From the NCBI GenBank assembly GCA_963778655.1, contig CAVZVA010000010.1:141134-205133 (forward strand): a stretch of 64,000 nt of DNA. Reading direction: 5' to 3'. This DNA comes from an uncultured delta proteobacterium (lineage in GTDB: Bacteria > Myxococcota_A > Polyangia > Polyangiales > JAFGIB01). Position numbers and translations under genes: made by a program. Under the pieces are notes generated by a model. The model was not told where the DNA came from, did not search any database, and saw nothing but the letters and a program-made list of their open reading frames with translations. Shown here in pieces: positions 25,334-51,345 of this stretch (its first letter is position 1; every line of letters begins with the position of its first letter).

Positions 25334-25357
25334 AGCGGGAGAAGGGATTCGAACCCG
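25334..25357 (-). repeat. tRNA-Gly 3'-end fragment (att-like, 24 nt)
   Basis: GAGCGGGAGAAGGGATTCGAACCC is identical to the acceptor/T-arm part of the tRNA at 51231-51304. Confidence 0.6.
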
Positions 25358-25819
25358 TTCGCAAGCGTTCTTCTAACCTGGCGACATCGCACGTCTTTCT
25401 GGCCTACAGGTTCGTAATCGCTCCGTCTTTCACCCTCCCACGAATCCACTGCAGTCCACCCGTGTCGACAGCAATCGACCCTGGTTTTGGAGACGTTTTG
25501 GAGACGGTGGCACCCCCGATTGTGCATCTCGGGGATCGTGCTCGGCCGAAGCTCACTTCGAGGGTGAAGGCTTCGCTGCCGCCGCGTACTGCGCGGAGGT
25601 TCCAGTCCAGCCCCACGTTGGTGTGGCTGCACCAGCAAGCTGTGGAACCCCGCGCGCCCACTCCTCATGAAGCAGCGACTTGTCGACCTGTTGGTAGAAC
25701 GCGGAGTCAACGAGGCCACGGAGCGCTCGGGCTATGCCCGCGACGTCCCACCGCTTCTCTTGTGGCAAACTGTGCGACGTACAGGGATCGTGGAGACGTC
25801 TTCTCATCCGAAGCGCCGG

Positions 25820-26113
25820 TCATGCGCAGCAGACAATGGGCCGGCAGCTCTCCCGCGGCGCGTGCGCCTGCGTTCTCCTCGTTCTTTTGGCACCGAAGGC
25901 GCCGAGGTGGCCGAGGCACGCGGCCGAATCGGCGTAGCGCTCCAGCACGTGCATGGTCTTGCCGTCCTGCGAGATGCTGAAGCGGTAGTCGAGCGCGCCC
26001 GGCTCGGCCCGTGTGGACTCCACCATCGCGTTCATCAGCTGCTCGAGGGCCACGCGTTGCCCGTCATTGATTCGCACTTCCAGCACCCAGCAGACGTTCT
26101 GCTTGTCGGTCAT
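25820..26113 (-). CDS. antibiotic biosynthesis monooxygenase (ABM) domain protein
   Basis: MTDKQNVCWVLEVRINDGQRVALEQLMNAMVESTRAEPGALDYRFSISQDGKTMHVLERYADSAA. The C-terminal 25 aa look atypical (possible frameshift). Confidence 0.55.
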   Translation of the reverse strand: MTDKQNVCWVLEVRINDGQRVALEQLMNAMVESTRAEPGALDYRFSISQDGKTMHVLERYADSAACLGHLGAFGAKRTRRTQAHAPRESCRPIVCCA

Positions 26114-26323
26114 GGTGATTGATTTGCTCCTGGTGGCTTGCCGCGCCCGCGTCCCTCGCGGGTCGGTCGTGATGCTTTCAGCTAGCCAGCAGGCGCTTCC
26201 GAGCACATGGGTAGAACCACCCAGAAGCCGCCAAATGGGCGGGCCGATTGCTCCGGGCCAGGGGCCGGAATGGCCCGAGCCGGGCGCGGTTTCGCCACGC
26301 GCCGGACCGTGTTATCCAGGTCC

Positions 26324-27511
26324 ATGCGCTGCGCGTCGTTGCTCGCGCTCTCGCTCTTCGTCGCGGGCGTCGCCGCTGCGTGCAGCGGCGGCAGAGCGAG
26401 CGAAGGCGGCGGCGCATCGGGCGCGGGCGGGCAAGGCGGCGGCGCTCCGGGCGCAAGCGGGGGCGCGAGTGCCGTGGGCGGTCAGGGCGGCACCGGCGCG
26501 ACCGGTGGGACGGGAGGCGGCGGCGCGGCGGGCAGCGCCGGCAACACGGGCGGCAGCGCGGGACCGGACGCCGCGACCGACGCCGGCCCCGCGGACGGCG
26601 GCGTGACGAACGGCGACGCCGGCGGCGGCGCGTTGCCCGAAGGCAATACCGGCATCGCTGCCAACCATCCGGGCGACCTGGGCATCGCGAGCGATCCCGA
26701 TGTGATCTTCGCCGACGATTTCGAAAGCTACGCGCCGACCGCGATGGGGCAGGACTTCACGACGCGCTGGGACTCGGTCTACCAGAACCAGTACGTGAGC
26801 ATCGCGACCGACGCGGCCAACGTGCACGCCGGCAAGCAGGCGCTCGAGCTCACGCTGCCGCAGCAGACCGCCGAGCTCAGCGACGGCACCGACAAGGTCC
26901 TGACGCAGGAACGCGACACGCTGTACCTGCGCTACTACGGCAAGTTCCAACCGCCGTTCGACGTGGTGGGCTCGAGTCACAACGGGTCGAGCATCTCCGC
27001 CCACTACTTCGACGGCAACATGGCCACGCCCGGCGTGCCGGCAGACGGCACCAACAAGTTCCTCGTCAATCTCGAGAGCTGGCGCGGCGACGCCTCGACC
27101 ATGTCGCCCGGCCTGCTCAACGTCTACGTCTATCACCCCGAGCAGCGCACGCAGTACGGCGACCACTTCTACCCGACCGGGCTCGTCGATCCGAACACCA
27201 GCATCCCGTTCGACTTCGGCCCGGATTTCGTGCCCCGCCCCGACGTGATTCCGGAGCTCGGGCGCTGGTATTGCTACGAGTACATGGTGCACGCCAACAC
27301 CCCGGGCCAACGCGACGGGCGCATCGCGATCTGGCTCGACGGCAAGCTGGTGGCCGATTTCGGCAACCTGCGCTTCCGCGACATCGCCAGCTTGAAGATC
27401 GACCGCTTCGGCCTGTCGTTCCACATCAAGAGCAACCCGAACGGCGAGGCCAAGAAGTGGTACGACGACGTGGTCGCCGCCACCCGCTACATCGGCCCGA
27501 TGGTGCAGTGA
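26324..27511 (+). CDS. lipoprotein with Gly-rich linker and C-terminal concanavalin-like / polysaccharide-lyase-like domain (tentative)
   Basis: MRCASLLALSLFVAGVAAAC lipobox. The C-terminal 290 aa have high GC3 and are non-repetitive (…WYCYEYMVHANTPGQRDGRIAIWLDGKLVADF…). Domain name not verified. Confidence 0.6.
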   Translation: MRCASLLALSLFVAGVAAACSGGRASEGGGASGAGGQGGGAPGASGGASAVGGQGGTGATGGTGGGGAAGSAGNTGGSAGPDAATDAGPADGGVTNGDAGGGALPEGNTGIAANHPGDLGIASDPDVIFADDFESYAPTAMGQDFTTRWDSVYQNQYVSIATDAANVHAGKQALELTLPQQTAELSDGTDKVLTQERDTLYLRYYGKFQPPFDVVGSSHNGSSISAHYFDGNMATPGVPADGTNKFLVNLESWRGDASTMSPGLLNVYVYHPEQRTQYGDHFYPTGLVDPNTSIPFDFGPDFVPRPDVIPELGRWYCYEYMVHANTPGQRDGRIAIWLDGKLVADFGNLRFRDIASLKIDRFGLSFHIKSNPNGEAKKWYDDVVAATRYIGPMVQ

Positions 27512-27602
27512 AGCCCGAAGCGCCGCCCGCGACCCGTGGCCCGGCGCAGCCCGGTGTCTACGTGAGTGGGCAGCCGCACGCCGGCCCACCGGAGGTGACG
27601 CG

Positions 27603-28802
27603 ATGGCAGCCCCCAGACAGCTCCTGATCGAAGGCGCGGTGGCCAAGGCCTTCGAGCCCGTGCGCGAGGCGTTCATCGAGAATTTCGCGCGCCGCCGCGA
27701 GCTGGGCGGCGCGTGCTGCATCTACCAGCACGGCGAAAAGGTGGTGGACCTGTGGGGCGGCCTGCGCGATCGGGTAAGCGGCGAGCCGTGGCGGGCCGAC
27801 ACCATGGTCGTCGTCCACTCGACCACCAAGGGCTTGTCGGCGCTGGCCATGGCGCTCGCCTGTTCGCGCGGCCTGCTCGACTACGACGAGCGCGTCTGCG
27901 CGTACTGGCCGGAGTTCGCGCAGGCCGGCAAGGAGCGCATCACCGTGCGTCAGCTGCTCGCCCACCAGGCGGGGCTATTCGGGTTCGACGACCCGGTCGA
28001 CCGCGAGGTGGTGGCCGACCTCGGTCGTCTGGCCGCGGTCATGGCGCGCCAGCGCCCCGCGTGGGAGCCGGGCGAGCGGCAGGCGTACCACGCGATCACG
28101 CTCGGCTTCTACGAGAGCGAGCTGATCCGCCGGGTCGATCCGGCGCACCGCAGCCTGGGTCGCTTCTTCGCCGACGAGCTCGCAGCGCCGCTCGGCCTCG
28201 AGTTCTACATCGGCCTGCCCGACGCGATCCCCGAAAGCCGCGTGGCGCCGCTCGAGCCGCCGCGCCTGCGCGAGCGCCTGGTCGGGATGCCGCTGCCGGT
28301 CGTGCTGGCGTCGATGAGCAAGCACTCGGTGCTCTACCGTTCGCTGATCGCCAACCCCGGCACGGGGTTCTACGTCGATGCCCAGCGCCGCGTGGTGCGA
28401 AACCTGGAGGTCCCCTCAGGAGGCGGCGTCGGCACTGCGCGCGCGATCGCCAAGGCCTACGGCGTGTTCGCGGCCGGCGGACGCGAGCTCGGGCTGCGCC
28501 CGGAAACCCTCGAAGCGCTGAAGGCGCCGGCGGTTCCGCCGCGCCGCGGCTTCTTCGACGAGTGTCTGCGCGGAGCCGCGCGCTTCTCGCTGGGCTTCAT
28601 GAAGCCCAGCGAAGGGTTCCCCTTCGGTCATCCGGGCGCATACGGCGCGCCCGGCGCCGGCGGCTCGATGGGCTACGCCGACCCGGAGCTGGGCATCGGC
28701 TACGGCTATGTGACGAACACGATGGGCATGAGCCTGTCGGGCGATCCGCGCGACGTGGCGCTGCGCGCCGCGATCCCGGAAAGCGCCCGGCGCGCCGCGT
28801 AG
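27603..28802 (+). CDS. serine hydrolase, beta-lactamase/esterase (class C-like) family
   Basis: S-x-x-K motif VVHSTTKGLSALAMA. 399 aa. YHAITLG and PGAGGSMGYADPE C-terminal box. Confidence 0.85.
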   Translation: MAAPRQLLIEGAVAKAFEPVREAFIENFARRRELGGACCIYQHGEKVVDLWGGLRDRVSGEPWRADTMVVVHSTTKGLSALAMALACSRGLLDYDERVCAYWPEFAQAGKERITVRQLLAHQAGLFGFDDPVDREVVADLGRLAAVMARQRPAWEPGERQAYHAITLGFYESELIRRVDPAHRSLGRFFADELAAPLGLEFYIGLPDAIPESRVAPLEPPRLRERLVGMPLPVVLASMSKHSVLYRSLIANPGTGFYVDAQRRVVRNLEVPSGGGVGTARAIAKAYGVFAAGGRELGLRPETLEALKAPAVPPRRGFFDECLRGAARFSLGFMKPSEGFPFGHPGAYGAPGAGGSMGYADPELGIGYGYVTNTMGMSLSGDPRDVALRAAIPESARRAA

Positions 28803-50942: not shown

Positions 50943-51047
50943 TTACTAAGTGACAAACGATTATAAATGACATCGCGGCGCTTGGCTTACAGCGGGGTAC
51001 GCCGGTCCACGCTCCGGCAGGCCACGACCGGCGAAGTTGGCCACTCG

Positions 51048-51206
51048 ATGACGGGTCACGTCACTTAGCGCATGACCGAGCACTACTCGCACGTGGGCAC
51101 GGACGTGAAACGCACCGCCGTGCTGCGAGCCCTGGCCCCGCTTTCAGCCGCTCAGGTGGGGACAAGTGCCGCGGCGACGAACGACGCCAGCAGCACTGTC
51201 CCCTAA
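51048..51206 (+). pseudogene. tyrosine integrase 3' remnant with in-frame TAG (duplicate of 48054-48212)
   Basis: Part of repeat copy B; same text as 48054-48212. Confidence 0.65.
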
Positions 51207-51230
51207 GTGTCTCAAAACTCAGCCAAAAAC

Positions 51231-51304
51231 GGAGCGGGAGAAGGGATTCGAACCCTCGACGTCAACCTTGGCAAGGTTGCACTCTACCACTGAGTTACTC
51301 CCGC
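51231..51304 (-). tRNA. tRNA-Gly (anticodon GCC)
   Basis: GCGGGAG-TA-ACTC-AGTGGTA-GAGT-G-CAACC-TTGCCAA-GGTTG-ACGTC-GAGGG-TTCGAAT-CCCTT-CTCCCGC-T(CC) folds as a cloverleaf by hand, with anticodon GCC. Confidence 0.9.
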
Positions 51305-51316
51305 AAGTGGGCGGAA

Positions 51317-51345
51317 TAGATAGGCAAATCGGAACCGCCTGTCAA
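51317..51345 (-). promoter_or_regulatory. candidate sigma70-type promoter of tRNA-Gly
   Basis: On the minus strand: TTGACA (51345-51340), 17-nt spacer, TATCTA (51322-51317), 12 nt to the tRNA 5' end. Confidence 0.5.

Follow-up and report, generated by a model that had tools for sequence, protein, structure and literature searches.

The growth of genomic islands at transfer RNA (tRNA) genes, in the three steps of integration, decay and accretion, has been reviewed for streptococcal tandems of integrative and conjugative elements (ICEs), integrative and mobilisable elements (IMEs) and cis-mobilisable elements (CIMEs) (PMC5704250) and for the ssrA islands of Dehalococcoides (PMC3146451). In the former, of which ICESt1/ICESt3-CIME and the IME_Sag2603_tRNAlys composite island are examples, elements integrate site-specifically at a tRNA 3' end and then decay until they have lost the integrase but still possess attL and attR; newcomers enter the attachment (att) site holding the tRNA end, giving rise to tandem arrays with internal hybrid att sites (PMC5704250). 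In the latter, many islands lie in tandem downstream of one small-RNA gene, with direct repeats of its 3' end, and some islands without integration modules were proposed to be cis-mobilisable or fixed (PMC3146451). The locus described here resembles both. It belongs to a stretch of 64,000 nucleotides, the whole of which is called the window, from an uncultured delta proteobacterium of the Myxococcota_A (GCA_963778655.1, contig CAVZVA010000010.1, positions 141,134 to 205,133), where the 3' part of a tRNA-Gly(GCC) gene is very likely an integration hotspot bearing a tandem array, about 26 kb long, of at least five decayed integrative elements, designated units A to E.

Regarding the tRNA itself, ARAGORN finds a single gene in the window and Rfam agrees on the complete tRNA-Gly(GCC) that the initial annotation had recognised on the minus strand. 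The 44-nt core, GGAGCGGGAGAAGGGATTCGAACCCTCGACGTCAACCTTGGCAA, which covers the tRNA gene from its 3' end back to the final base of the anticodon loop, occurs exactly three times on the plus strand, starting at 45756, 48237 and 51231, and in 0 of 100 shuffles. Together with two shorter pieces, the tRNA-derived sequences are as follows.

51231-51304, minus strand: intact tRNA-Gly(GCC), by ARAGORN and Rfam (68.9 bits)
25333-25356, plus strand: att piece 1, 24 nt, exact to core positions 2-25 (k-mer scan)
33440-33470, plus strand: att piece 2, 31 nt, exact to core positions 14-44, the first 13 nt gone
45756-45799, plus strand: att piece 3, full 44-nt displaced tRNA 3' half
48237-48280, plus strand: att piece 4, full 44-nt displaced tRNA 3' half

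All five copies, that of the live tRNA included, share one orientation, and local alignment over both strands of the window found no other tRNA piece scoring better than shuffled sequence (12 at best, the shuffle maximum being 12 as well). Co-oriented direct repeats of the tRNA 3' part thus bound the units, which is how an island array is recognised. The sequence search upholds the exact, same-orientation recurrences previously reported at 45756 and 48237, as well as the exact 31-nt piece at 33440-33470; the 24-nt piece exists too, but one base to the left of the 25334-25357 that had been given for it. This last piece extends from the tRNA 3' end through the T-loop, and its length fits a crossover in the T-loop, which would make it the trace of a second sublocation.

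The pieces are accompanied by the ends of dead integrase genes. Using the intact neighbouring tyrosine integrase, int401, as tblastn query, a C-terminal remnant was located just left of four of the five pieces, the exception being the piece at 33440.

24947-25225, plus strand: integrase remnant of a second type, unit A, C-terminal ~95 codons, 40% identical to int401 residues 297-388, PF00589 (E=3e-9)
45502-45684, plus strand: integrase remnant, unit C, 49% identical to int401
47979-48197, plus strand: integrase remnant, unit D, 66% identical to int401
50973-51191, plus strand: integrase remnant, unit E, 66% identical to int401

By int401 numbering, the catalytic residues R228 and K262 are absent from all four remnants, and H333 and R336 from three of the four. 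The cores begin 107, 71, 39 and 39 bp past the last aligned integrase codon, with stop codons before them. The remnants of units D and E belong to the int401 subfamily (66% at the protein level, 88% at the nucleotide level over 153 nt) and carry an in-frame TAG (translation MTGHVT*RMTEHYSHV); they are a single sequence present twice. The integrase 3' remnants formerly noted left of 45756, 48237 and 51231, two of them interrupted by TAG, are thereby recovered by tblastn and translation, as is the second-type remnant before the 24-nt piece.

On the other side of the cores lie what appear to be element arms. The DNA to the right of 33470, 45799 and 48280 and that beyond the half-tRNA of L002, a related metagenome-assembled genome contig on which an integrase is followed by the 44-mer and by an arm like that of unit E, are mutually similar (z = 2.4 to 7.7); in the same comparison, the DNA on the tRNA side has no likeness to these four arms. 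Tandem repeats with 11-12-bp spacing, which may be arm-type integrase sites, are found +96 to +98 from the core in the three window arms, and comparable repeats occur in units A and B.

33566-33587: unit C arm repeat, AGTGGTTGAT twice, at +96
45897-45915: unit D arm repeat, GGAGTCAAGGAGGGGTCGA, at +98
48376-48395: unit E arm repeat, GCAGTCAACGCGAAGTCAAC, at +96
25241-25262: unit A repeat, AGTGGTTGAT twice, within the unit A integrase gene, at its 3' end
25484-25505: unit B left-end repeat, GTTTTGGAGAC twice, at +128

In the whole window, AGTGGTTGAT has four copies, namely the unit A and the unit C pairs.

Relatives of the integrase display the same geometry. A scan of species-representative genomes with int401 yielded 31 loci, with relatives at 80-85% identity, and the integrase converges with a tRNA 3' end in nine of the eleven related loci that have a tRNA (L001, L005, L006, L009-L013 and L015, the tRNA being Gly, Ala, Val or Cys), as do the remnants in the window. 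At locus L034, the integrase P0003 is 85% identical to int401, its spacer is near-identical to that of units D and E, and the spacer is followed by a 45-nt tRNA-Gly half with the same boundary as the 44-mer of the window. Since L034 also encodes a relaxase (PF03432), ParA and AbiEii, the family looks like IMEs or ICEs and, by analogy, the ancestors of the window elements may have been IMEs. Distal att repeats were absent within 10 kb in the related loci, except for a 14-nt piece in L011. Besides, the identical 44-mer is present as a displaced half on 18 JGI metagenome contigs (L043-L060), on 16 of which the next feature is a conserved arm bearing tandem repeats of the GTGGTG type (…GTTGAAAGTGCAG…AGTGGTGTGAAGTGGTGGGG). 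No integrase-like open reading frame (ORF) precedes it in the ten JGI contigs examined with more than 1.6 kb upstream, and in L050 (5029-6363) an intact tRNA and a displaced half lie 1.2 kb apart, forming a miniature integrase-less unit. Among 50,697 phage records, no integrase matches int401 above 31% identity, and its IMG/VR relatives are 35-40% identical with no adjacent tRNA.

Five co-oriented pieces, remnants before four of them, related arms after three and convergent relatives are direct observations, and they bear out the earlier proposal of repeated site-specific integration, each event displacing the old half. In the favoured model, each incoming circular element would bring an integrase gene with an attP downstream of it, the attP core being a copy of the tRNA 3' end that reaches back to the anticodon loop in most units (44 nt) and only to the T-loop in unit B (~24 nt). 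Recombination with the live tRNA would rebuild the gene from the element copy and push the previous 3' half outward, and the oldest units would therefore lie farthest left and the youngest next to the tRNA. Unit A would have come first, then unit B via the T-loop, leaving the 24-nt piece on unit A, and then units C, D and E via the anticodon loop; later deletions, insertion sequences (ISs) and a group II intron would have removed the integrase bodies and most mobility genes. Two events would overlay this scheme, i.e. the duplication of a 692-bp right end already holding a dead integrase, and a rearrangement that set a DUF5338-HTH_17-int401 module, without its own att site, against the tRNA promoter on the 5' side. 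The AGTGGTTGAT pairs flanking both the 24- and the 31-nt pieces first suggested that these were a single core divided in two by an insertion that came with a 12-nt GGATTCGAACCC duplication; this was dropped, as sequential accretion of unit A, the T-loop-type unit B and unit C, plus one deletion, gives the same structure, and the joined ends of unit B give no tRNA.

The units and the ORFs of concern below are the following.

24694-25332, plus strand: unit A remnant, with the last codons of DUF5338, the start of the next ORF, an internal deletion and the integrase C-terminus
25357-33439, plus strand: unit B, 8.1 kb, 70-74% GC, cargo genes only
33471-45755, plus strand: unit C, 12.3 kb
44160-45470: rve transposase, unit C
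45800-48236, plus strand: unit D, 2.4 kb
46881-47948, minus strand: AbiEi-like ORF, 355 aa, unit D
48281-51230, plus strand: unit E, 2.95 kb
50340-50942, minus strand: truncated AbiEi-like ORF, 200 aa, unit E

Unit A adjoins the stop codon of an FGE-sulfatase/EGF-domain gene. Its segment 24694-24944 forms a 252-bp inverted repeat, 92% identical, with 52895-53146, which shows that a backbone with DUF5338 is common to unit A and the int401 module, while their integrases differ. Unit B encodes an ABM monooxygenase, a beta-lactamase family protein, a GH12 hydrolase, two YCII proteins and an ECF (extracytoplasmic function) sigma factor. Its right end, the expected place of an integrase, is missing, and we propose that a single deletion took both this end and the initial 13 nt of the core that follows. 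The YCII-YCII-ECF sigma (DUF6596) operon of unit B (31134-33307) encodes a sigma factor with counterparts at 80-88% identity on hundreds of Myxococcaceae contigs, which points to a probable Myxococcaceae-like host or donor; in other Myxococcaceae the YCII-sigma operon alone is kept and its flanks are not, which is neutral on mobility.

Unit C contains HicA, HTH_3, a group II intron fragment, gene fragments, NUDIX and enoyl-CoA hydratase genes, and unit E a DUF2204 nucleotidyltransferase and a HAD hydrolase (minus strand); the array also holds an AbiEi_2 match as well as luciferase-like and DUF3237 gene fragments. The group II intron is represented by two 3' fragments, 98% identical (13988-14583 and 35723-36454), with an RVT_1 fragment and domain V/VI; one is inside unit C, with an RF00029 match at 36328-36429, and the other 20 kb to the left. 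The toxin-antitoxin and abortive infection (Abi) modules, IS elements and gene fragments that had been described between the pieces are thus accounted for by HicA, HTH_3, AbiEi_2, DUF2204, rve and the intron fragment. NCBIfam and PADLOC scans of ten unassigned ORFs each returned no match. As for the relaxase or oriT by which ICEs and IMEs are defined, no relaxase was found among the ~60 window ORFs scanned, those of units D and E included.

Units D and E deserve separate consideration, as the 692 bp at 47589-48280 and 50583-51274 are 100% identical and end exactly at the core. Besides the core and the spacer, this block takes in the dead integrase with its TAG, a palindromic promoter region and 120 codons from the start of the AbiEi-like ORF. 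In both copies the start of that ORF is overlapped by a perfect inverted repeat of 10 bp, ATGTCATTTA-N18-TAAATGACAT (47942-47979 and 50936-50973), which looks like a candidate operator. Since the dead integrase is already inside the repeat, the duplication postdates integrase decay and, given the shared right end, units D and E do not stem from two autonomous elements that integrated independently. Both units have full 44-nt cores on either side, family-type arms and only dead integrase remnants; in keeping both arms and cores they would resemble cis-mobilisable remnants, with the structure that defines a CIME.

The most likely alternative is that at least units D and E arose by segmental duplication, be it unequal crossover between 44-nt cores, gene conversion or Campbell-type homologous insertion. 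It would readily explain a repeat without mismatch that ends at the core, with dead integrase, TAG and AbiEi-like junction identical in both copies, as well as an AbiEi-like ORF in unit E that is a shortened version of that of unit D (200 vs 355 aa, 120 codons identical). However, the left 1.8-2.3 kb of the two units are unrelated in content, and their arms start at the core boundary and are diverged yet family-typical (58% identity, repeat at +96 or +98), which simple duplication does not yield; moreover, the integrase types or arms differ in units A, B and C. Segmental duplication is therefore considered a possible but clearly minority explanation, and the 692-bp duplication itself may have come about by trans-mobilisation, unequal crossover or gene conversion.

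The second alternative involves int401, which lies 37 bp beyond the tRNA, outside the range covered by the initial annotation, and whose surroundings include the following features.

51342-52547, minus strand: int401, 401-aa tyrosine integrase, PF00589 (E=3.4e-28), PF22022 (E=8.6e-9) and PF14659 (E=4.3e-7)
52561-52713, minus strand: HTH_17 (excisionase/AlpA-type) coding segment upstream of int401, PF12728 (E=2e-6)
53059-53409, minus strand: DUF5338 gene of the int401 module, whose 3' end and adjacent DNA are the inverted partner of 24694-24944
51317-51345, minus strand: promoter-like TTGACA-N17-TATCTA, by inspection, 12 bp from the tRNA

The catalytic set of int401 is complete (R228, K262, H333, R336, H358 and Y367); in an 18-sequence alignment, R228, R336, H358 and Y367 are invariant and K262 and H333 nearly so. 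By its domains and catalytic residues, int401 is thus a predicted member of the tyrosine recombinase family. Its gene lies upstream of the tRNA and is co-oriented with it, the reverse of the family norm, and its TGA stop codon is inside the TTGACA that forms the -35-like box of the tRNA. The consensus scanner did not call this tRNA promoter because its -10 is TATCTA; the element is termed promoter-like on inspection and on its likeness to the region upstream of the L001 tRNA-Gly (20 of 29 positions alike, in register). Since no spacer, arm or core follows int401, and no inverted core exists in the window, the junction appears illegitimate, and looks like an accidental fusion without att site. 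Possible routes are the deletion of a divergent second tRNA-Gly, an inversion with a breakpoint beyond the window, or co-mobilisation by the adjacent IS91. Inversions between the 252-bp inverted repeats (24694-24944/52895-53146) and between the 153-bp inverted integrase ends were also considered; both leave the int401-tRNA adjacency unchanged and therefore neither accounts for the position of int401.

It could then be supposed that int401 is a resident integrase that inserts and excises integrase-less, att-bounded units in trans, the locus being an integron-like capture platform instead of a graveyard. All catalytic residues are indeed present and the gene adjoins the live att site, opposite the array; the two newest units lack an integrase of their own, with a right end duplicated after integrase decay that would be a trace of trans-mobilisation, and units D and E keep both arms and have remnants of the same integrase subfamily. 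Nonetheless, the remnants show that at least three types of integrase were formerly carried by the units themselves; in relatives, the gene is an ordinary element-borne one, convergent with the tRNA; and the junction seems accidental, without att site, in a layout found in no other locus. Such a platform would be highly improbable, and ordinary rearrangements are the more likely source of both the misplaced int401 and the post-decay duplication. The claim that the array keeps no intact integrase therefore stands for the array proper, but the conclusion that it is immobilised does not, as a catalytically complete int401 adjoins it; with a potentially active enzyme of the D/E-remnant subfamily beside the array, "immobilised" would be an unsafe description. 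Finally, that the tRNA-like pieces are dispersed repeats of the repetitive extragenic palindromic type, or chance matches, is scarcely credible, as no supporting point was found, none of the 100 shuffles gave the core, the whole 64 kb holds no more than the five pieces, all of one strand and none farther than 26 kb from the tRNA, each piece has element-type flanks, and the metagenome 44-mer is nearly always followed by an element arm where the flank suffices.

Accretion at one tRNA gene remains the favoured model, even though several points weigh against it. No related genome with an empty site was obtained, so the integration events are inferred and none is demonstrated directly. The genome of the window is absent from the species representatives scanned, and the one further record, a Logan assembly (run ERR11571143), matches two window proteins on short contigs. 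Unit D or E may, through the shared 692-bp end, derive from duplication or gene conversion. The element status of unit B, which has no mobility gene, a higher GC content and ordinary-looking genes, rests on its position and one tandem repeat. The left end of the array has neither a terminal att piece nor a recognisable host flank and, lastly, the model does not predict the position of int401.

Beyond these main subjects, the window has other features of mobile or repetitive DNA. To the right of the int401 module, a dense IS cluster (54143-63656) also comprises an ISL3 fragment, an IS91 fragment and an IS3-family transposase, besides the following genes.

54143-55753: IS91 transposase
57284-58828, minus strand: IS21/Mu-like transposase
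61151-62398, minus strand: neprosin-domain protein

To the left of the array, a 61-nt fragment at 10672-10732 is 84-87% identical to the middle of int401-type genes (L034, L001 and L002), with no tRNA piece nearby, and mobile-element debris may extend in that direction. Tandem duplications occur at 8907-9129/9133-9344 (95%) and 9358-9522/9524-9688 (100%), and a short tandem array at 58935-59102. At 18978-21114, also left of the array, a Ser/Thr kinase-AAA_16 (STAND-like) ORF is followed by an overlapping GAF-domain ORF, the pair being either a frameshifted large signalling protein or two genes.

In terms of meaning, the locus illustrates cleanly and at good resolution how islands accrete and decay at a tRNA gene in the Myxococcota, where such arrays have been little described. 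It defines a 44-nt tRNA-Gly(GCC) attachment core common to many environmental myxobacterial elements and hints at a conserved organisation of the arms, in which tandem repeats sit ~96 bp away from the core; core and arm organisation could both be of use to programs that search for islands and in designing integrating vectors for myxobacteria. Tandem accretion of islands at tRNA genes is a known phenomenon, of which the locus is an instance from a less-studied phylum, with no new mechanism; if anything goes beyond routine, it is the intact integrase out of its usual place and the duplication that postdates integrase decay.

Rather than an integron, in which IntI is divergent from attI and Pc and the cassettes are promoterless single ORFs ending in a folded attC, the locus has multi-gene units with their own arms, repeats that are tRNA halves and an int401 co-oriented with the tRNA and belonging to an ordinary element-borne clade, so that this assignment was rejected. 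Regarding phages, the attP core of Mx8 lies inside the integrase coding sequence, and integration changes the integrase C-terminus. Studies of Mx8 and Mx9 integration by Tojo and colleagues (1996) and by Julien (2003) are cited in PMC11610982. The locus shares with Mx8/Mx9 a myxobacterial host, tyrosine integrases and tRNA genes as attB but, unlike in Mx8, the cores lie 39-107 bp downstream of the last aligned integrase codon and not within the gene. The link to Mx8/Mx9-type integrases once suggested for this array therefore comes down to analogy, with cores outside the integrase gene, phage identities of at most 31% and a relaxase in the closest relative with context.

Compared with the ICE/IME/CIME tandems (PMC5704250), the host is here a myxobacterium, the integrases are of another clade and the intact integrase is on the wrong side of the tRNA; besides, no relaxase or oriT was found in the window, a relaxase being present in the relative L034 only. 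Compared with Dehalococcoides (PMC3146451), where serine recombinases, a 20-bp repeat and a transfer-messenger RNA are involved, the array displays tyrosine integrases, 44- and 24-nt repeats and tRNA-Gly. These two lengths have a counterpart among the integrases themselves. Tyrosine integrases reportedly fall into classes by tRNA sublocation, including the anticodon-loop and the T-loop, a scheme ascribed to Williams in 2002 (reference 24 of PMC3146451). The identity blocks observed here match both of these classic sublocations, which were apparently used at one and the same tRNA gene in a single array.

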